From NCBI GenBank assembly GCA_045560915.1, contig JBJKYT010000036.1, forward strand, positions 1-41,495: DNA of 41,495 nucleotides, written 5' to 3'. Both the position numbers and the translations under genes were made by a program. The stretch comes from Alphaproteobacteria bacterium. GTDB taxonomy: Bacteria; Pseudomonadota; Alphaproteobacteria; HIMB59; GCA-002718135. The notes under the pieces were generated by a model that ran no database searches, was not told the origin of the DNA, and was given only the letters and a program-made list of their open reading frames with translations. Position 1 is the first letter of the stretch. Each line of letters begins with the position of its first letter. Below are positions 19,180-38,506 of the stretch, piece after piece.

Positions 19180-19779
19180 ATGAGTATATCAGATTTTATA
19201 CAAGGATTTATAATTGGATCATCTCTAATTATTGCAATTGGACCGCAAAATTTATATGTAATAAATCAAGGATTGAAGAAGAATTACATCCTAATTGTAG
19301 TGTTATTATGTAGTTTATCAGATAGTTTGCTTATTGTTTGCGGAATTTATCTATCAAATAGCTTACTAAATTTAAATGATTCTTTAATAATAACTATGAA
19401 GCTTATTGGTGGAATTTGGTTAATTTTATATGGAATTAATAAAATTAAAAATTCAAATAGTCACAATATTGAAAATAAAGAATTTAAAGAATCATCCTTA
19501 AATAAAATAGTATTCACAACACTTGCTATTACTTATGCTAATCCTCATGTTTATTTAGATACAGTTGTATTACTAGGATCGATTTCAGTAAATTTTGATA
19601 ATAAATTTTATTTTGGTTTAGGTGCTATAGTTGCAAGTTTTATATTTTTCTTTACTTTAGGTTATTTTTCAAAATTTTTATCTAAATATATTAAATCAAA
19701 AAAAGTTTGGTTTTATATTGATAATATTATGGGTTTTTTGATGTTGTTTTATGGATTATTTTTTATTTTTATGAATTAA
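19180..19779 (+). CDS. LysE/ArgO family amino acid exporter
   Basis: LIIAIGPQN and TYANPHVYLDTVVLLG motifs. Confidence 0.9.
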   Translation: MSISDFIQGFIIGSSLIIAIGPQNLYVINQGLKKNYILIVVLLCSLSDSLLIVCGIYLSNSLLNLNDSLIITMKLIGGIWLILYGINKIKNSNSHNIENKEFKESSLNKIVFTTLAITYANPHVYLDTVVLLGSISVNFDNKFYFGLGAIVASFIFFFTLGYFSKFLSKYIKSKKVWFYIDNIMGFLMLFYGLFFIFMN

Positions 19780-22770
19780 AAAATTATTAATCTCACTACA
19801 TAAAACATCAGCATTTTTTTTATTAAAAACCATTGGTGGTTTTATCTTTATAACATTATTAAATGGTCCATCAGTGCTTAATAATATACCTTTATGTCTT
19901 AAATTATTAATTAATTGAGAAGCTAAATTTGGATTAGGGAGTAAAGTATTAGAATTTTTGATTAAATCTATGCCAATAAACAATCCTCTACCACTTATAT
20001 TACTAATTGAATGAGGAAATTTTAATTTTAATTTATTTAATTTATTAATTAAATAATTACCAACTTCTTTGGCATAAAGCTGTAAATTTTTATTATCAAT
20101 AACATCTAACACAGCATTGCCTACTGCACATGATACGGGATTCCCTCCAAATGAATTAAAATATTCCATTCCATTATTAAAACTGTTTGCAATTTTTTCT
20201 GTAGTAACAACAGCTGCAATAGGATGTCCATTTCCCATTGGTTTTCCTAATGTTACAATATCAGGAACAATTCCATGTTCTTCAAATGCCCAGAAATTAT
20301 TCCCCACTCTACCAAAACCTGTTTGTACCTCGTCTGCTATACATAAAGCATTTTTTTGTCTTACTAATTTAATAATATTTTTAAGGTAATTTTTAGGTAA
20401 TACAACTTGGCCTCCACATCCTAAAATACTTTCAAAGAAAAATGAGGATAATAAATTGTCCTTAGTGAAGTTTTTATTTATTAGTTCTTTTGCCTCATTA
20501 ATATAGTTAGTTAACCAATTTTTTTTCTTACTTGTCCATTTGCCTCTTATTTCATCAGGCATTCTTAATACGTGAACATTTTTCTTTTTGCCCTCGCCAC
20601 CTTTGTTTTTGAATTTGTAAGGACTTAAATCAATTAATGTATTAGTATGGCCATGATAAGCATTGTCCATTACTAATACATTATTCCCTTTTGTATATGT
20701 TTTTGCAATTCTTAATGCTAAATCATTAGCTTCAGATCCAGTACAAACAAAAAATATTTTATTTAATTTTTTTGGAAATGTTCGTAACAATCTATCACTA
20801 TATTCATTAATAATATTATAAAGATAACGTGTATTAGTATTCAATTTTAAATTTTGTTCTACTAAAGCTTTGTGTACATCTGAATTAGAATGACCAACAT
20901 GTGAAATGTTATTTACACAATCTAGATATTTTCTTCCTTCTTCATCATAAAAATATTGATCTTTAGCCTCAAGAATATGTAGAGGTTCTTTATATGAAAT
21001 TGATAAATTTTTTCCTATATTTTTAATTCTTTTTGATAATACTTTTTCTTTTTTTTCTTTATTATATAAAAAAGATTGAGGGATTTTTAAAATAATGTTT
21101 GGATCAGGTGATATTTGCTTCCATACATCAATTAAATATTCTTCACCAACCCCTGGAAAATTATTAACTTCATTCAGTAAAGAAAGTAAAATTTGAAAAT
21201 GCAAGTGTGGAGGCCAATTTCCATTAACTTTGTACCCCCCTATTTCACCTATCCAGTCTCCTTTCTTAATAGTTTGTCCAATTTTAAGTTTCTTAAGACA
21301 TTTTTTAGATAAATGACCATAAAGTGTGTAAAATTTAAAATTTTTAATCTTGTGTTCTAATATTAATGTTGGTCCATAATCATATTTAAAATTGTTATTA
21401 TGTAAAATAGAAACTTTTCCATCAAGAGGTGCTCGTATTTGAGTTCCTTCTTTAATAAATATATCAATACCTAAATGAATATCTCTTTTTTCTGATGTAT
21501 TTAATGTAGAAATATAATGATTACTTTTATAAATTTTTCTCTTTTCATTATATAAACCAATTCCCACATCATCTTTTAAGAATTTTTTAACTAAAATATT
21601 TAATTTATTATTTGAGGGATTAGATTTTAATAAAAAACTTTTTTTATCAAAATTTAAAATTTTTTTATTAATGTCATTAAGTTCAAAATTAAATATGTTT
21701 TCATATTGTTGATTTTTAATTAATTGAAAAATTTCATTAAAATTATCTATTGGATCTAAATTACAAATCTCTTTTATAACAGCGATAAAAAAATATGGGT
21801 CAATTTGATGTAATTTAGACATCAATGACCAAGCATTTTTTTCACTAATACTTAAATATTTATTATTAGGATATTTTTTTCTTTGTTTAGCTGCCATTAC
21901 CAAAGTAATCGTTAAGCGAGATTTAATTAAACCTAGTAATGAATATATTTCATCTTTAGTTAACGGATTAATATTATTGTAACTACCAACAATGTTTTTA
22001 AGAGATTCATAAAAATTATTACTACTCATTAAAGCATAAGATAATGCTATTGATAAATCATTAATTGAAGGAGCATAAATTGAATCACCAAAATCAATTA
22101 AACCAATAATTTTATCATTTGATACAACAATATTATAATTATTTGGATCTCCATGTGTTACAGAAAATTTTAAATTCTTTATATTTTTTAGAACAAAATG
22201 TTCATATTGATTAATTGAATCTTTAATAAGTTTTCTTTCAAAACCTTTAAATAATTTTAAAAAATGTTTAGTCCATTTAATGTTTGAAGGATCCCAATCA
22301 AATTTTCTAATAGAATCTTTGTGAATAAAGCTTTGAAGATGGTTTGATTGTAAAGCTAATATTTTGCCAAAAGATTCTTCTATTTTAGTATTTATCTTTG
22401 ATTTGGCGTACATATTACCTTCAATATAAGTAAGAATACGAACTGCACAGTTTCTGTTTTTTTTATCTTTTAAAAATAAAATTTTTTTATGGCAAATTTT
22501 TGGATAAATACTTTTTAATTTTTTATTTGATCTTAAATAGTTAATTAATATATCTTGATATTTTAATTGATCTAAGGATTCTTTTGGATTTGAAATTTTA
22601 ATTACATATTTAGTATTATTTACTCCTTGTAATAAAAAATTTTTATCTCTTTCACTATTTAAAGATGTTAATTTAATATTTTTAAAATTCAGATAACTAT
22701 AATTATTTTTTAGCCATTTAGATAATTCACTAAGATTAATTAATGGTGGCTGTTCTTCAAAAACTGACAT
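19756..22770 (-). CDS. triple fusion: APH-like (hydroxylysine-kinase-type) kinase + M23-like domain + class III PLP enzyme (phospho-lyase type)
   Basis: [23 protein letters not shown] (kinase); HLGID, LYGHL, PPHLHFQ (M23); [34 protein letters not shown] (PLP domain). Confidence 0.88.
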
Positions 22771-30791: not shown

Positions 30792-32657
30792 ATGGAAAAT
30801 TCGACTAAAAAAAGGGAAAATTTAGCTTTTCAGGCAGAAGTTAGCAAACTTTTAGATTTGGTAGCTAATTCTTTGTACAGTGAAAGAGAAATTTTTCTTA
30901 GAGAGCTTATTTCAAATTCAGCCGATGCTTGTGAAAAATTAAGATATTTAGCTTTATCAAAAAAAAATATTTTAGGGGGGAGTAAGATTTTAGAAATTAA
31001 AATAAATGTTTCTAAAAAAAGAAAAATAATAGAAATTGAAGACAATGGCATTGGAATGTCTCGTCAAGATTTAATTGATAATCTTGGCACAATAGCAAGA
31101 TCTGGAACAAATAAATTTATAGAATCAATAAAATCAAAAAAAACTAACGATATATCAGCAATAGGCCAATTTGGAGTTGGTTTCTATTCTTCCTATATGG
31201 TTGCTGATACAGTAGCTGTTCATTCAAAAAATGTAGAAAATGACTCTTCACATTTATGGATTTCTAATGGAAAAGATAATTATACAATTGAGGAACTAAA
31301 AAAAGAAGATAGGGGAACCAAAATTTCTCTTAATATAAAAAAAGACTCTGAAGAATTTCTTGATAGTATGAGACTTAGATCGATAATTTCTAAATATTCA
31401 AATTATATTCCTTTTCCAATTTATTTAAAAGATCTAGACACGAAGGATAAAGAAGAAAAAATAAATGAAGGCAATCCATTATGGTTAAAAGATAAAAAAG
31501 ATATAAAAATAGAAGATTATAAACAATTTTATAATAATATTTCATTCAATTTTGACGAACCATTAAAAACAATTCATTTTAATGCTGAAGGTGTAATAAA
31601 TTACAAAGCTCTTTTATATCTTCCTACTAATCAACCTATGGATTTATTTAATTCTGAAAGAAAAAATAAAATAAAATTATATGTACAAAAAGTTTTTATT
31701 ACTGATGAATGTGATGAAATCATGCCAAATTGGCTTCGTTTTGTTCCCGGCGTAGTGGACTCACAAGATATTTCACTAAATATAAGTAGAGAAATGCTAC
31801 AAAACAATCCAGTAATTGAAAAAATTAAAAAAGGAATAACGAATAAAGTTTTAAATGAAATAAATACTCTTTCTACTAAAGATAATAAAAATTTTTTAAA
31901 TTTTTGGAAAAATTTTGGAGCGGTAATTAAAGAAGGTCTCTATGAATTTAATGATCATCATGAAAAACTTCTATCATTACTTAGGTTTGAAAATTCATAT
32001 AATAATGACTCAATATCCTTGGATGATTATGTAAAAAACATGACAAAGGATCAAAAAGAAATATATTATTTTGCAAATACAGACAAAGAACATATTAAAA
32101 ATTCACCACAGCTAGAAGCATTTATATATAAAAAAATCCCTGTTTTATTTATGACAGATGCTGTTGATGAATTTTGGCTTCAAAATATTAATAAATACAA
32201 AGAATTTGAATTTAAATCTATTTCTAAAGGAAAAGTTGATATATCTAATCTAGGTACTTCACAAAAAGATAAAAAAGGATCTAGTAAAAAAATAAATAAT
32301 AAAATCAATGATTTAACTTCATTGTTAAAGAAAGAACTTAAAGATAAAATTTCTGATGTAATAATTTCGGATAGATTAACTAAAAGTCCTGTTTTGTTAG
32401 TAGCTGAAGAATCAGGGATGGACATAAACATGGAAAAGTTAATGAAAATGCACAATCAAAAAACTCCGGAATCTAAAAAGGTTTTAGAAATTAATGCTGA
32501 ACACCCTATGATAGTAAAAATATCTGAAAATCTTAATAATTTTAATCATAAAAAAGTATCTCAAATGATTTTAGATCAAGCAAATATACTAGATGGAAAT
32601 ATTCTATCAAACCCAACAAGTTATATGGAAAATTTAACAGATCTTTTTATTAAATAA
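30792..32657 (+). CDS. htpG: molecular chaperone HtpG (Hsp90)
   Basis: FQAEV, IFLRELISN, DNGIGM, IGQFGVGFYS, LNISREMLQ. Confidence 0.97.
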   Translation: MENSTKKRENLAFQAEVSKLLDLVANSLYSEREIFLRELISNSADACEKLRYLALSKKNILGGSKILEIKINVSKKRKIIEIEDNGIGMSRQDLIDNLGTIARSGTNKFIESIKSKKTNDISAIGQFGVGFYSSYMVADTVAVHSKNVENDSSHLWISNGKDNYTIEELKKEDRGTKISLNIKKDSEEFLDSMRLRSIISKYSNYIPFPIYLKDLDTKDKEEKINEGNPLWLKDKKDIKIEDYKQFYNNISFNFDEPLKTIHFNAEGVINYKALLYLPTNQPMDLFNSERKNKIKLYVQKVFITDECDEIMPNWLRFVPGVVDSQDISLNISREMLQNNPVIEKIKKGITNKVLNEINTLSTKDNKNFLNFWKNFGAVIKEGLYEFNDHHEKLLSLLRFENSYNNDSISLDDYVKNMTKDQKEIYYFANTDKEHIKNSPQLEAFIYKKIPVLFMTDAVDEFWLQNINKYKEFEFKSISKGKVDISNLGTSQKDKKGSSKKINNKINDLTSLLKKELKDKISDVIISDRLTKSPVLLVAEESGMDINMEKLMKMHNQKTPESKKVLEINAEHPMIVKISENLNNFNHKKVSQMILDQANILDGNILSNPTSYMENLTDLFIK

Positions 32658-33588
32658 CAGAATTATTAATTTTATTTTTTAAAAAATATTCAACAAACTG
32701 ATTAGCTACCATTTCAGCTACAATAATTTGTGCCTCAATAGTAGATGCAGCAATATGTGGTGTTAATAATACATTTTCTAAACCAAAAAGAATATTTTTA
32801 GTAGCTGGTTCAGTATCAAAAACATCAATAGCGGCCCCTGCTATTTTATTATTTTTTATTGCCTCACATAAATCAATTTCTGATACAAGGTTACCTCTTG
32901 CGGTATTAATAATAACTGCATTGCTTTTCATTTGATTAATTTCATTAGTATTTATTATAGAAGATCCATCTTTATTTGGCTTACAGTGAAAACTCACAAT
33001 ATCAGCATCTTTCAAAACGTTATTTAAATCAGAAGATATATATTCAGGAAAATCATCCTTAATACTATTAAAAAATTTAGAAACTATTAAAATTTTTAGT
33101 CCAAGAGAATGACAAATTTCAGCAAATCTTTTACCCACATTTCCAAAACCAATAATTCCTAATGTCTTTCCTCTTATCTCATTACCTTTTAATTTTTTTT
33201 TAGCCCATTCTCCTTTATGAGTAGTTATATTTGCTTTAACTATCTTTCTAGATAGAGATAATAGTAATGCCAGAGTATGTTCTGCCGTTGCATTAGTGTT
33301 ACCACCTGGTGTGTTCATTACTATAATATTTTTTTCTTTAGCTGATAATAAATCAATATTATCAACTCCTGCTCCAGCTCTACCAATAATTTTTAAATTT
33401 TTAGCCTTTTCTATAATTTCTTTTGTTACTTTTGTTGCTGATCTGACAATCAATCCGTCATATATTGAAATGTTTGCAATAAGATCTTCTATAGAAAAAT
33501 CTGTTATAACATCTACTTCAATATTGTTAGATAGGAGTATTTTTTCAGCAATACTATCCATAGCATCAGAAATAAGAACTTTAGGCAT
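32650..33588 (-). CDS. serA: D-3-phosphoglycerate dehydrogenase, short form without ASB/ACT domains
   Basis: GLIVRSATKV, GRAGAGVDNID, GIIGFGNVG, INTARG, LTPHIAASTIEAQ; overlaps the serC end. Confidence 0.9.
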   Translation of the reverse strand: MPKVLISDAMDSIAEKILLSNNIEVDVITDFSIEDLIANISIYDGLIVRSATKVTKEIIEKAKNLKIIGRAGAGVDNIDLLSAKEKNIIVMNTPGGNTNATAEHTLALLLSLSRKIVKANITTHKGEWAKKKLKGNEIRGKTLGIIGFGNVGKRFAEICHSLGLKILIVSKFFNSIKDDFPEYISSDLNNVLKDADIVSFHCKPNKDGSSIINTNEINQMKSNAVIINTARGNLVSEIDLCEAIKNNKIAGAAIDVFDTEPATKNILFGLENVLLTPHIAASTIEAQIIVAEMVANQFVEYFLKNKINNSVI

Positions 33589-34744
33589 AAGAACCTTTTA
33601 CTTTAATATAAGCCCATTCTAACCAAGGTAATAACAATTTAATATTATGTGGTTCAATTGTTCCACCGCCCCAAACTCTGAAAGAAGGGGGTGCCTTAGC
33701 ATATCCATTTATATCGTAAGCAATATTCTCTTCTGAGAGTATTTTGCATATTTGTTTAACAATTAATTTTTGATCATCTTCATTTTTAGATAAATACCAA
33801 TCTTCACAAATTTTAAATGTAATACTTGTATTAGATAAATATTCCTTACTTTTGTTATTTGATAAAAAAGTTACCCAATCATTATTTTCAATCCAATTAT
33901 AAATTATATCAAAAGATTTTTTTGAAGTTTCTAGTAAAAATTCTAAACCACCATTTTCTTTAGCCCAATTAAGTCCATCTAGTGCATCTTCAACACATAT
34001 CATCGAAGGAGTATTGATTGTGCTTCCTTCAAATATACCTTTAATAATTTTATTATTATCAGCTATTCTAAATAGTTTTGGAATTGGCCATTTAGGAGAA
34101 TGTTCTTCTAATCTTTTTAAAGCTCTAGGAGACATAGCAATCATTCCATGAGCAGCTTCTCCTCCTAAAACTTTTTGCCAAGACCAAGTGAGAACATCAC
34201 ATTTAGAATAATCAATAGGCATTGCAAAAATGGCTGATGTAGCATCACAAATAGTTAAGCCATCTCTATCATCAGGTATCCAGTTAGAATCTGGAACTTT
34301 TACTCCTGAGGTGGTGCCATTCCATGTAAAAATTACATCATTTTTAAAATTAATTTTTGTTAAATCAGGAAAATCTCCATAATTTACATCATGAATATTT
34401 AAATTTGATAATTGAAGTTGCTTTAAAACATCTTTAACCCAGTCTTTACCAAAGTTTTCCCATGCTAATATATCAACTCCCTTTAATCCTAATAAAGACC
34501 ATAAAGAAGCTTCAAGGGCACCAGTATCTGATCCTGGCAAAATACCTACTACATAATCACTAGGGAGATTTAGTATTTCTTTTGATTTATCAATTACAAG
34601 CTTTAACTTTAATTTTGCTTCACCAGATCGGTGAGATCTTCCTGTTTTAGCATTAACTAAATTTTCAATCTTCCAACCTGGTCTTTTTGCACAAGGACCA
34701 CTTGAAAAATTTGGATTATTTGGTTTTTTAGATGGTTTTTCCAT
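33581..34744 (-). CDS. serC: phosphoserine aminotransferase (alphaproteobacterial type)
   Basis: FSSGPCAKRPGW, GRSHRS, SDTGA, WNGTTSGV, DATSA, SWQKVLGGEAAHG, TINTPSM. Confidence 0.93.
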   Translation of the reverse strand: MEKPSKKPNNPNFSSGPCAKRPGWKIENLVNAKTGRSHRSGEAKLKLKLVIDKSKEILNLPSDYVVGILPGSDTGALEASLWSLLGLKGVDILAWENFGKDWVKDVLKQLQLSNLNIHDVNYGDFPDLTKINFKNDVIFTWNGTTSGVKVPDSNWIPDDRDGLTICDATSAIFAMPIDYSKCDVLTWSWQKVLGGEAAHGMIAMSPRALKRLEEHSPKWPIPKLFRIADNNKIIKGIFEGSTINTPSMICVEDALDGLNWAKENGGLEFLLETSKKSFDIIYNWIENNDWVTFLSNNKSKEYLSNTSITFKICEDWYLSKNEDDQKLIVKQICKILSEENIAYDINGYAKAPPSFRVWGGGTIEPHNIKLLLPWLEWAYIKVKGSYA

Positions 34745-34747
34745 ATT

Positions 34748-35938
34748 CTAATTAAATTCATAAACTACCAACCCATCAAGAGGCTTAGGATCAAACCAAG
34801 TTGATTTAGGTGGCATAGTCAAATTGTTATCAGCAACTCTAATAACATCTGTTATCTTAGATGGAAAGATTGAAAAAGCTACACTGTCAGGATTTTCATC
34901 TACTTTTTTTTCTAAAGCAGAAAGTCCATGACAACCTGCTATAAACCTTATTCTTTCATCATTATTAACATCTTTGATATTAAGCATTTTTGTTAAACAA
35001 AAATGATTTAATATATTAATATCCAAAGAATCAATAAAGTTATCAGAAGTGAGTGAATTAATAAATTCAAGAATATACCATTGTTTATCATGGTACATAC
35101 CAAATTCATTCTTAGTAGATGGCTTGTGTGGTTTATCTGTTTTTAAAATTTTAAAATCATTAGATAGATTTTTTATAAATTGCTCTTTAGAAAGGCCATT
35201 TAAATCTTTTATAACTCTATTATAATCAAAAATTTTACATTCATCTGAAGGAAAAGCAGCAATCATAAATCTTTTATTTAATGGATTAATTTTATTTATG
35301 TACTGCATTGCACCCATTCTATGATGGCCATCTGCGATATATAAATGGTTAATATTTTTCGCTAAATTCTTAAATTCTCGAATAAAATTTTTATCATTAA
35401 CACACCACAGTTTATGAATTGATTTATCAAAGCTTTCAAAATCATATGTTGGGGAATTCTTAGTAATAGATAATAGTAAACTAGCAACATTATCTTCAGA
35501 TGGATAAGAAACATAAATTGGACCAATTTGAGTACTAATATTCATCATTTGATCAGCTCTTTCAATTTTTCTATTTTCATAGATTTTTTCGTGTGGTTTA
35601 ATTATATTTTTTTCAAAATCATTAATAGAAGCAAGAGATAAAAATCCTAATTGAGAGTGCTTGCCAAGTTGAATTTGATAAATATAAAAATTTAATTCAT
35701 TATCTTTTTTAATAACATCATTTAATTTCATTTCATTAAAATGTTCACGTGCTTCAAATAAAGAATCTTTTTCTTTTAACTGACCTACAGGATTTAATAT
35801 TTTTAAATAATTCCAGTAATTATTTTTTCTAAAAATTTCTATATTTTCAATACTTAAATGATCAGTAGATGGAGCAATTAAATTTTTTGCGTCTTGATTG
35901 TAGGGACGGGTACCATGGAAAGGCCAAATATCTACCAT
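34748..35938 (-). CDS. DUF1015 family protein
   Basis: IKPHEK, LYIADGHHR, I-x-D-YNRV and C-terminal MPPKSTWFDPKPLDGL. Confidence 0.9.
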   Translation of the reverse strand: MVDIWPFHGTRPYNQDAKNLIAPSTDHLSIENIEIFRKNNYWNYLKILNPVGQLKEKDSLFEAREHFNEMKLNDVIKKDNELNFYIYQIQLGKHSQLGFLSLASINDFEKNIIKPHEKIYENRKIERADQMMNISTQIGPIYVSYPSEDNVASLLLSITKNSPTYDFESFDKSIHKLWCVNDKNFIREFKNLAKNINHLYIADGHHRMGAMQYINKINPLNKRFMIAAFPSDECKIFDYNRVIKDLNGLSKEQFIKNLSNDFKILKTDKPHKPSTKNEFGMYHDKQWYILEFINSLTSDNFIDSLDINILNHFCLTKMLNIKDVNNDERIRFIAGCHGLSALEKKVDENPDSVAFSIFPSKITDVIRVADNNLTMPPKSTWFDPKPLDGLVVYEFN

Positions 35939-35945
35939 TTATTTT

Positions 35946-36066
35946 TATCTAGCCCTCTGTTGATTATAAAAAATCTTCAGATATTAATTACAAAGGTCCT
36001 TTTGCCTGAGAGTTTCCGGGACGTTGCTCCTTCGGCGTTAATATAATTAATCTCTCCCAATGTAAT
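35946..36066 (-). promoter_or_regulatory. glycine riboswitch: one full aptamer (36066-35987) plus a degenerate 3' stem
   Basis: Minus strand reads attacattGGGAGAGA-ttaattatattaa-CGCCGAAGGAGCAAcgtcccGGAAACTCTCAGGCAAAAGGACctttgtaat, the conserved glycine aptamer core closed by a P1 stem. Confidence 0.92.
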
Positions 36067-36123
36067 AAAACATTAATATATTTTATGAATAAATAATATA
36101 TATAAATGCAAATATATTAGTAT

Positions 36124-37487
36124 TTATGAAACTTCAGGTAAATTTGCCATTGCTTTATTAACTGATTCTTCTTCAAAAACATCATCGGCAAGCTTTCCTG
36201 TAAAATAATCATCGTAAGCAGACATATCAAAATGTCCATGACCACAAAGATTGAAAAGAATAGTTTTAGATTCACCTTTTTTCTTACATTCTAAAGCTGC
36301 ATCTATAGCTCCTTTTACAGCATGAGTGGCTTCTGGGGCTGGAATTATGCCTTCTTGTTTTCCAAAATTAACACCAGCTTCAAAACATTCTTTTTGACCA
36401 TAAGCTTTAGCTCTCATTAAACCAAGTTCATACAAGTGACTTAAATGATAAGACATACCATGATATCTTAAACCGCCTGAATGGTTAGCTGGAGGTAGAA
36501 AATCTGATCCTAGTGTATGCATTTTTATAAGTGGTGTCATTTTAGCCATGTCACCATGATCATATGCGTATTTACCTTTAGTAAAAGAAGGGCAAGATAA
36601 AGGTTCACATCCAATTATATCTATTTTTTTACCACCACGTAATTGCTGACCTAAAAAAGGAAACATTAAACCTGATAAGTTACTTCCTCCTCCGGTACAT
36701 CCAACAATAATATCAGGATAATCACCAGCTTGCTCCATTTGCAATATAGCTTCATTACCATTAATTGTTTGATGCATTAAAACATGTCCTAAAACACTAC
36801 CTAAAGAATATTTTGCTTTGCCTTCACTTTAACTACTGACTCAATTGCATCAGAAATGGCAATGCCTAAACTACCTGGATTATTAGGGTCTTCTTCTAAT
36901 AGTTTTTTTCCAAAATCAGTTAAAGAAGATGGGCTTGGATTACATTTAGCTCCAAATGACTGCATCATTAGTTTTCTATAAGGTTTTTGGTCAAAACTGA
37001 TTTTAACCATAAAAACTTCAATATCTATTCCAAACATTTGTCCAGCAAATGCTAAAGAACTACCCCATTGTCCAGCTCCAGTCTCAGTAAATATTTTTTT
37101 TACACCCTCTTCTTTGTTAAAAAAAGCCTGTGGTACAGCTGTATTTGGCTTATGACTACCAGTAGGGCTGACTCCTTCATATTTATAATAAATTTTAGCA
37201 GGAGTATCTAAGAATTTTTCTAGTCTTCTAGCTCTAAATAAAGGTGAAGGTCTCCACTGTTTATATATTTCTCTTACTGGTTCAGGTATTTCAATTTCTC
37301 TTTCAGTTGAGACTTCTTGGAGAATCAATCCCATTGGAAATAATGGTGCAAAATCATCAGGTCCAGCTGGTTGTTTTGTTCCAGGATGCAAAGGTGGAGG
37401 TGGTGGACTTGGTAAGTCAGCGTTTATATTATACCAAAATTTAGGTGCTTTAGATTCTTCAAGTAAATATTTAATTGTTTCAGACAT
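36124..37487 (-). CDS. trpB2: tryptophan synthase beta chain, TrpB2 type; single-base frameshift near 36828-36830
   Basis: [51 protein letters not shown]. Adding one A joins the two ORFs via [22 protein letters not shown]. Confidence 0.9.
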
Positions 37488-37531: not shown

Positions 37532-37615
37532 ATGAAATTTAATGCTGGAATTACAACTATATTTATAGCAATATTGCTAATTGCATATGCTTTCATTAGT
37601 TATTACTTGCACTAA
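37532..37615 (+). CDS. putative 27-aa single-TM peptide (not in ORF track)
   Basis: [27 protein letters not shown]; its stop overlaps the convergent EamA stop (CTAA), like other gene pairs here. Confidence 0.45.
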
Positions 37616-38506
37616 AATAATTTAATTTTTTTTTGACTTATAAAAACTCCTATCAAAATAAGAAATACTCCTATTCCAATACTAAAAGTTATTGTTTCTT
37701 TTAAAAAAATGTATCCCCATAAAATTCCAAAAGCTGGAATTAAATATGCAACATATGAAAGAAATATTGGACCAGCTTTAGAAATTATATGAAATCTTAA
37801 TTGAAATGCTATAGCAGTAGGAAATAATCCTAAATATATTATAGTTAAAAAAGAAGTACTATTAAATGATGAAGGGTAAATTAATTCTGCATAAATCATA
37901 AAAGGAAATGAAATTATTGCTGCTGCAGTTATTACTAAAGTTGTTAAAGTCATAGTATCTATATTTTTTAAATTATATGCAAGAATAGAAGAAATCACAT
38001 AACCCATAGCAGCTATAATAATTGCAAATTTAGGAATAAAATAAGATTCATTATCTGTAAAATTACTAATACTATCAAAACCAATAATAAAAAAAACTCC
38101 GACTAATCCAATAGTAATTGATATAAACTTTAATAGAGTAAAATTATCATCTTTGGTTAATATAGGCGCTAAAATTAGAGTAAAAATAGGTGCAACAGAT
38201 AATAATAATGCAGTAGTATTAGACTGTATAAATTGTTCTGACCAATTAATTAAAAAAAAGGGATAATATTTCCAATAATACCTATAAGAGTTATCAAGAT
38301 GAGTAATCTTATATTAAGATTAAAAACATATTTTTTATAAAAAAAATTGTAAGTAAGAATAAAGAAGCAATAATTAATCTTAAAGATGCAATAGAAATAG
38401 GATTTACAAATTGTACAGAAATTTTAATTGCAATAAATGCGGAGCCCCAAATTGCGCTTAATATAATTAATAAAGTAAGATTATTTGTAAAAAAATTTTT
38501 TATCAA
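37612..38506 (-). CDS. DMT/EamA transporter broken by two single-base deletions (near 38331-38336 and 38252-38259)
   Basis: IWGSAFIAIK ... GNIIPFF/LINWSEQFIQS ... YLGLFPTAIAF ... YLIPAFG form one EamA protein once one base is added to each homopolymer run. Confidence 0.8.

Follow-up and report, generated by a model that had tools for sequence, protein, structure and literature searches.

A glycine riboswitch heads a serBK-serC-serA operon

The stretch of DNA analysed here (the window; 41,495 nucleotides (nt) of contig JBJKYT010000036.1, assembly GCA_045560915.1, from an alphaproteobacterium of the order HIMB59) carries on its minus strand a glycine riboswitch followed by three tightly packed genes, serBK (encoding a DUF1015 protein), serC and serA. 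The glycine aptamer (36069..35984, minus) was found with the Rfam model RF00504 at 66.4 bits against a gathering score of 32 (E 8.7e-12), and the open reading frame (ORF) of serBK starts 45 bases 3' of it (35938..34748, minus). Its product, P0001, has 396 aa and matches PF06245 with E 1.4e-63 and 215.2 bits against a cut-off of 25.8, over model positions 1-323 of 325. After a gap of 3 nt follows serC (34744..33581, minus; 387 aa), encoding a phosphoserine transaminase of the serC_2 type that matches NF002841 with 588.6 bits (cut-off 477) and also TIGR01365 with 525 bits; serA (33588..32650, minus; 312 aa) then overlaps serC by 8 nt. The serA product is a D-2-hydroxyacid dehydrogenase (PF02826 and PF00389) whose best model is the phosphoglycerate dehydrogenase TIGR01327, at 314.5 bits. 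This lies under the 454-bit cut-off because only positions 1-309 of the 525-position model are matched, and the protein is therefore a short-form 3-phosphoglycerate dehydrogenase. The unmatched part of the model is presumably the C-terminal, serine-sensing regulatory region, and a short SerA is compatible with either a biosynthetic or a reversed pathway. The order of riboswitch, DUF1015, serC and serA, together with the gap and the overlap, had been described in an original prediction made on this DNA, and Rfam, the ORFs and the Pfam/NCBIfam matches confirm it. A convergent htpG gene faces the 3' end of the operon, and a scan of the operon leader gave no convincing promoter or terminator.

The linkage of aptamer and DUF1015 is not a matter of chance, since the aptamer lies directly before DUF1015 in all five related genome loci with upstream DNA (66-73 bits) and a pattern search recovered 28 distinct leaders with an aptamer, preceding proteins that are ~70-90% identical to that of the window. 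The close relatives of P0001 are labelled "Alphaproteobacteria bacterium" and come from marine metagenomes and single-cell genomes, including "MarineAlpha5_Bin7". In metatranscriptome contigs we found only short pieces from relatives (80-225 nt); X3 record 24 (35818-36043) and X5 records 31 and 32 span aptamer and coding sequence and give no information on strand or start, with carry-over of DNA being possible, and the matches to the aptamer core include switches of other organisms.

The trio DUF1015-serC-serA also occurs in five further genomes of the order (G080, G109, G115, G020 and G116), which cover both of its families. In G116, from the second family, the trio is headed by a DUF1015 protein of 380 aa with 31-35% identity, and the 384-nt gap 5' of it (L070 5324-5706) gave no Rfam match at E<=0.01; this gap may hold a further leader element. 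Across the class, DUF1015 was present in 41 of 401 sampled genomes. Thirty DUF1015 loci fetched from other Alphaproteobacteria contained no glycine aptamer within 1.5-kb flanks (aptamers farther away would be missed), and there is therefore no independent lineage from which to read the polarity of the switch.

The riboswitch is a type-1 singlet

The switch consists of one aptamer, a ghost-aptamer hairpin 3' of it and an invariant G-run, and is thus a type-1 singlet. The glycine-binding aptamer (35984..36069, minus) comprises P1, P2 and P3a/b, with the invariant CCC of the P3b loop at 36018-36020; this loop reads (U/A)CCC in 28/28 leaders. A permissive scan of 35800-36400 gave no second aptamer. 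The ghost hairpin (35956..35981, minus) is built of an outer UCUG/CAGA helix, an AA/AA purine internal loop and an inner GAUU/AAUC helix, and directly 3' of it stands the G-run GGGC (35952..35955, minus), which we propose to be the partner of the P3b CCC as well as the base of the start-codon hairpin described below. Upstream of the aptamer, the leader strand AUAUUAAU (36072..36079, minus) is, by eye, a perfect complement of the aptamer-ghost linker AUUAAUAU (35981-35988), a pairing that could possibly form a P0 or kink-turn helix as in tandem glycine switches.

These elements were assessed in alignment A1, which holds the 28 leaders and begins downstream of the AUAUUAAU strand. Pairing holds in 96.9% of the cells of the whole structure, and two-sided changes occur at 7 pairs, a number that 6 of 500 shuffles reach, and slid controls are 25-47% paired. 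Within P1, 5 of the 8 pairs vary on both sides. The pattern AUAUCUG-AA-GAU..AUC-AA-CAGA is kept 3' of the aptamer in every leader, with a variable inner helix; in the ghost hairpin, helix 5 is paired in 100% and helix 6 in 96.4%, and covariation is seen at one outer pair (UA to AU) and at one inner pair (UA in 15 leaders, CG in 12). The motif CAG-N(1-2)-GGGY was found in 28/28 distinct riboswitch-bearing leaders versus 0/12 distinct riboswitch-less orthologues, and both the C-run of P3b and the G-run after the ghost are invariant in all 28. Unconstrained folding of the whole leader did not recover the aptamer (z -1.1).

This arrangement is in line with the published anatomy of type-1 singlets. 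Passages of Torgerson 2018 describe a ghost that lies 3' of the aptamer, contains purine mispairs, is stabilised by the ligand and forms part of the expression platform; 85% of type-1 singlets have a pseudoknot between 3-4 C of the P3b loop and 3-4 G just after the ghost, which often overlaps an alternative helix. A corresponding pseudoknot between the P3b loop and the G-run may form here. An intrinsic terminator between aptamer and AUG was considered as the platform and none was found, so the platform is treated as translational.

The start codon lies in a predicted hairpin that reaches into the coding sequence

As the OFF-state structure we propose a hairpin, H3 (35921..35955, minus), in which GGGCUAGAUA pairs with UAUUUGGCCU and the AUG (35938-35936) sits in a 15-nt loop. 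The second strand corresponds to codons 3-6 of serBK (GAU AUU UGG CCU). In the window the minimum-energy fold includes H3, which forms in 28/28 leaders, with a median energy of -12.0 kcal/mol versus -8.0 kcal/mol for shuffled leaders (median z -2.0; 15/28 at <=0.05). Because the MAFFT alignment A1 misplaces AGAGGGC relative to AGAAGGGC, H3 was assessed by custom scripts, outside the pair count given above. Codon-5 UGG, which H3 needs, is present in all 28 switch-bearing genes versus none of 12 genes without the switch; the switch-less orthologues have AAA or AAU in its place (12/12) and no G-run.

In leaders with CAGAAGGGC, H3 extends into the 3' strand of the ghost (10 pairs in L031 and L032, counted by hand), which makes ghost and H3 mutually exclusive in these leaders; forcing the ghost in L031 and L032 costs 4.6 and 7.1 kcal/mol, respectively. 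The mean unpaired probability of positions -12..+12, free versus constrained (medians 0.52, 0.51 and 0.54), carries no information, since the hairpin keeps the AUG in its loop.

Kinship with the gcvT tandem switch of the same genome

The window's own genome (G000) also carries a tandem glycine riboswitch at a contig end (C52:26209-26370; positions 1501-1668 of locus L002), and in relatives (L062, L057 and L059) the tandem precedes gcvT. The serBK switch departs from the tandem at a single position in the aptamer-1 core and at a single one in the linker, and its UCUG...CAGAG helix recurs in aptamer 2 of the tandem, where GGGG follows it. Sequence comparison makes the serBK switch a paralogue of this tandem. 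For gcvT, complementarity links the 3' strand ACAGAG of the tandem to the region around the start codon (CUCUGUC or CUUUGU; starts are CUG or UUG), which we read as an ordinary, classical ON layout. The likely start codon of the gcvT ORF, CUG or UUG, falls within the partner sequence of the 3' strand of aptamer-2 P1. At 755-835 of L002 (G000 C52), ~0.7 kb upstream of the tandem glycine switch, lies an IMES-4 RNA motif (RF02037, 78.1 bits).

The DUF1015 protein has a predicted fold like that of free serine kinases

An AlphaFold2 model of P0001, built on an alignment of 80 homologues that also served for conservation, reached a pLDDT of 94.4 and a pTM of 0.91. A Foldseek search of this model against solved structures gave 9 chains at E<=1e-3, all of them SbnI (6nr6/5uje/5ujd), SerK (5x0b/e/g/j/k) or 1vk1, with the next match at E 7e-3. 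VIA-align superposed the SerK, SbnI and 1vk1 chains with Z 12.0-13.6 over 212-227 residues, compared with Z ~5 for Noc/ParB and sulfiredoxin. The predicted fold of P0001 is thus of the ParB/Srx type and like that of the free serine kinases SerK and SbnI, as the original prediction had anticipated from a YIADGHHR motif. This motif is indeed present, within LYIADGHHR at residues 199-207; among the 80 homologues, no variation is seen at D203, G204, H206 and R207, while H205 is shared by at least 90%; E117, a candidate counterpart of the catalytic glutamate E30 of SerK, and K378, T380, P384 and K385 are invariant as well. A sequence profile run against the PDB gave 1vk1 alone, at a non-significant E of 0.53; the alignment covers the motifs IADGHHR and PPKST, and the DGHHR motif of P0001 aligns with IVDGHHR of 1vk1. 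P0001 matches no NCBIfam model, including TIGR00338, and, given its ParB/Srx-like fold, is therefore not a SerB homologue.

That DUF1015 interconverts serine and phosphoserine, as the original prediction had proposed, is supported by this fold and by the scarcity of serB reported below, and the idea has already been published. The accompanying remark that no function had been demonstrated is outdated: Price et al. (bioRxiv 10.1101/2024.10.14.618325; PLoS Genet 2026, PMC13759103) named DUF1015 SerBK and report, in the passages available, that CBO1128 of Clostridium botulinum lets E. coli serB::kan grow on minimal medium and that BT1151 of B. thetaiotaomicron is needed when L-serine is the nitrogen source. 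In the same passages SbnI is the top Foldseek match, AlphaFold 3 places ATP confidently, and 47/50 genomes with a close homologue beside serA lack serB, the threshold for co-occurrence being at least 445 bits to CDIF630erm_01132 (~50% identity). They propose a bidirectional serine kinase for both synthesis and utilisation, with the reverse-kinase direction thermodynamically unfavourable, the kinase direction favoured and biochemistry still lacking. They credit Hofmann et al. 2018 with first suggesting that the phosphoserine phosphatase missing from C. difficile is its DUF1015 protein.

serB is scarce and glycine sources are present

Absence of serB from the window had been part of the original prediction and was upheld, with none in the NCBIfam scans; the genome's own assembly (1.04 Mb, 56 contigs, 67.9% complete) likewise gave no TIGR00338 match at E<=0.01. 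The comparison of DUF1015 and serB across genomes that had been proposed alongside was run on 187 species genomes from the two families of the order, 22 of them of high quality and one complete (1,410,127 bp). A homologue of P0001 occurs in 154/187 of these and in 22/22 of the high-quality genomes, whereas canonical serB (TIGR00338) exceeds the cut-off in 4/187 and in 0/22, in a search that did not extend to phosphatases of the histidine-phosphatase and IMPase-like types. The four serB carriers (G005, G006, G008 and G057; L066-L069) are four species of the large genus, with 182-189 bits, and G005 and G057 have serB alongside a riboswitch-headed serBK operon.

Sarcosine oxidase soxB exceeded the cut-off in 5/5 genomes, including that of the window. 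Serine hydroxymethyltransferase (SHMT) was found in 7/10 of the genomes examined; two of those without a match belong to the window's genus, where 3/3 other genomes offset them. The iron-sulfur serine dehydratase sdaA was found in 0/5 genomes, in a search that left aside the PLP (pyridoxal phosphate) dehydratases and the hydroxypyruvate and glycerate routes.

Genes around the operon

In the window's family the gene order is EamA transporter, TrpB-like PLP enzyme (TIGR01415), DUF1015, serC and serA, and the TrpB-like gene is the conserved direct upstream neighbour of DUF1015 (L071 1922-3286; L072 1865-3229; L073 4645-6009). In the window this gene (36124..37487, minus; TIGR01415/NF009057) is split by a 1-nt deletion near 36832 into two ORFs of 228 and 217 aa; in relatives the enzyme is whole (454 aa). 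The EamA transporter of the window is shortened to 131 aa (37612-38007, minus), and in the same-genus relative L004 both the TrpB-like enzyme (454 aa) and EamA (298 aa) are intact. Compared with L004, the window has 1-nt deletions near 36832, 38260, 38350 and 38792, three of the four adjoining homopolymer runs; these are either assembly errors or signs of recent pseudogenes. We take TIGR01415 to correspond to TrpB2. Since use of O-phosphoserine has been reported for TrpB2 enzymes (Busch 2014, cited in PMC11917138), the gene cluster may be organised around phosphoserine. Farther along the window, at 19756-22770 (minus), a 1004-aa protein has a full-length match to NF004799 that, at 1003 bits, falls short of the cut-off of 1128 bits; the C-terminal part of this protein contains a class-III aminotransferase domain.

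A probable translational ON switch and a proposed reversal of the serine pathway

How the switch might act on the operon can be set out as follows. When glycine is absent, the G-run after the ghost would pair with codons 3-6 of serBK plus flanking bases, so that the start codon is enclosed and initiation blocked. When glycine is bound, the aptamer would dock the ghost hairpin while the P3b loop, through its CCC, would take up the G-run; with the G-run captured, the initiation region would open and the operon, presumably as a whole, would be expressed. [quoted passage not shown]

An ON polarity favours the direction glycine to serine to phosphoserine to 3-phosphoglycerate, and it fits the kinase direction that Price et al. 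consider thermodynamically favoured. Along this route glycine would be converted to serine by SHMT and the glycine cleavage system, itself under the tandem glycine switch; SerBK, with its SerK/SbnI-like predicted fold, would phosphorylate serine; and SerC and SerA would run in reverse, from phosphoserine to 3-phosphohydroxypyruvate and 3-phosphoglycerate, giving C3 units. The same enzymes could probably serve as a source of serine as well, and provide the neighbouring TrpB-like enzyme with phosphoserine. Taken together as one explanation, a serBK-serC-serA operon under a type-1 singlet glycine switch with an ON mechanism and reversed flux under glycine is the account towards which we lean mildly. 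The stronger proposal, that in these abundant marine bacteria the "serine biosynthesis" operon serves mainly in glycine-induced assimilation, with glycine from sarcosine or glycine betaine passing through serine, SerBK and reversed SerC/SerA to 3-phosphoglycerate, is a tentative one that falls somewhat short of an even chance. The suggestion in the original prediction that the polarity of the switch would tell the direction of the pathway has thus been taken up here: the anatomy favours ON, by inference.

Several observations weigh against this account. Because the P3b CCC and the GGG never vary, the pseudoknot is without covariation. For leaders of the window's type, ghost hairpin and H3 are not mutually exclusive, so switching there would depend entirely on the pseudoknot. 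When the GGG is blocked, the predicted structure loses a median of 5.6 kcal/mol (pseudoknot pairing energy excluded), and the ligand stabilisation measured in Torgerson 2018 is, in the passages available, 2-3 kcal/mol only. The co-occurrence of aptamer, codon-5 UGG and G-run is explained by a single change on a quick tree, and we therefore claim no statistical weight for this association. In G080, G109 and G020 only 13-46 nt, and no aptamer, lie between the trpB-like gene and DUF1015, and G116 has the same operon and no glycine aptamer anywhere. The nearest representatives of the DUF1015 family outside the order are 30-45% identical to P0001. Finally, with serB absent from 183/187 genomes the operon is probably also a route to serine, and induction of a biosynthetic operon by glycine is counter-intuitive, feedback repression being the natural expectation.

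Such repression is the content of the reading that we consider the most serious rival and still rather unlikely, in which the switch is OFF and gives end-product feedback: SerA, SerC and SerBK make serine and hence glycine, and abundant glycine shuts the operon, serine then being drawn from glycine. The presence of serB over the cut-off in only 4/187 genomes makes the operon a likely biosynthetic route, the rescue of E. coli serB::kan by CBO1128 (passages of Price et al.) points the same way, and OFF glycine switches do exist. As described in passages of Crum 2019 and Torgerson 2018, however, the OFF cases are type-2 singlets or tandems before transporters, whereas the switch here is of type 1 and homologous to the presumed ON platform of gcvT. 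An OFF mechanism could be drawn in the window itself, where the 3' strand of P1, CCUUUGU, could by eye pair with ACAGAGG and so open H3 without glycine; this complementarity is interrupted, again by eye, in L028 (the same stretch as L004), L043, L047 and L022, and was rejected as a conserved mechanism. Moreover, the G-run lies 13-15 nt from the AUG (hand count), too far for a good ribosome-binding site that the pseudoknot would mask.

A very improbable alternative sees the aptamer as a degenerated duplicate of the gcvT tandem that regulates weakly or not at all, with read-through from the upstream trpB-like gene driving the operon. This would agree with the relatives in which 13-46 nt without an aptamer separate the two genes, with the compatibility of ghost hairpin and H3 in the window's leader type and with the lack of a convincing promoter or terminator in the leader scan, but against it stand an invariant aptamer core, covariation in P1 and the ghost over 28 leaders (their proteins share only ~70-90% identity with that of the window), aptamer scores of 66-73 bits in relatives, and the retention of the G-run and codon-5 UGG in 28/28. 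We also think it improbable, if somewhat less so, that DUF1015 acts otherwise in this lineage, for example by transferring phosphate to or from another small molecule tied to the use of phosphoserine by the TrpB-like enzyme. The passages of Price et al. report no DUF1015 enzyme assay, and P0001 appears distant from the members tested and is ~150 residues longer than SerK/SbnI, of which 212-227 residues align; yet DUF1015, serC and serA are adjacent in both families of the order, serB is scarce there, the predicted fold matches free serine kinases only, and the genetic data of Price et al. come from two other phyla.

Should glycine turn the operon on, as the ON account holds, the reversed, catabolic direction would be the one selected in this lineage; should glycine turn it off, the operon would be biosynthetic. 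How a kinase-like enzyme replaces a phosphatase, and in which direction SerBK works in cells, were left open by Price et al., and the ON polarity suggested here turns the question of direction into a simple reporter experiment. If the glycine-induced route is real, the polarity of the riboswitch would be natural evidence for SerBK acting as a kinase in vivo, and these cells, like SAR11, would depend on outside glycine or serine, not on that derived from glycolysis. The organisms appear to be part of a widespread oligotrophic marine clade, probably AEGEAN-169/HIMB59. Since the lineage makes glycine from sarcosine, the answer is also relevant to the entry of C1/C2 osmolyte carbon into central metabolism in surface waters of the ocean.

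Comparison with known systems

COG4198 presumably corresponds to the DUF1015 family. Passages of Kazanov, Vitreschak and Gelfand 2007 (PMC2211319) report single-aptamer glycine switches before uncharacterised COG4198 genes in three metagenomes and before serC as well, with most annotated fragments coming from the Sargasso Sea and the COG4198 fragments assigned to Firmicutes; their COG4198 element is probably the same as the serBK switch described here. The caution in the original prediction that the gene linkage might have been noted before was therefore well placed. Sun 2013 (PMC3766115) places serC and serA of one Clostridium under a glycine switch. In the passages concerned, these two studies give no gene function, no ghost or pseudoknot anatomy and no polarity, the preprint of Price et al. 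mentions a riboswitch for glyXS-glyXL only and not for serBK, and our literature search found no paper on the polarity or anatomy of the serBK glycine switch. The enzyme hypothesis is thus already published and the riboswitch linkage was glimpsed in 2007; what is new here is the type-1 anatomy, the apparent origin from the gcvT tandem and the proposed ON polarity.

The serBK gene of the window resembles those of Clostridioides difficile, C. botulinum (CBO1128) and B. thetaiotaomicron (BT1151) in belonging to the same Pfam family, in lying beside serC/serA, in occurring in genomes mostly without serB and in its SbnI/SerK-like predicted fold; unlike them, it comes from a marine alphaproteobacterial lineage, stands first in the gene order and has a glycine riboswitch in front. 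With SerK of Thermococcus kodakarensis (5x0b etc.) and SbnI of Staphylococcus (5uje, 6nr6), P0001 would share the ParB/Srx-type fold, and it has the DGHHR motif and a PK(S/T)T motif near the C-terminus in common with them, whereas it is only 10-14% identical to these kinases and is the longer protein.

The switch itself is like the type-1 singlets of Ruff 2016, Torgerson 2018 and Crum 2019 in having one aptamer, a 3' ghost with a purine internal loop and a post-ghost G-run facing the C-run of P3b, and in its kinship with a tandem aptamer 1. It differs from them in two respects: type-1 singlets mostly precede gcvT-type genes, whereas the switch here heads a serine-pathway operon, and its platform appears to be translational, a start-codon hairpin reaching into the coding sequence, rather than a terminator as in the type-1 singlets compared.

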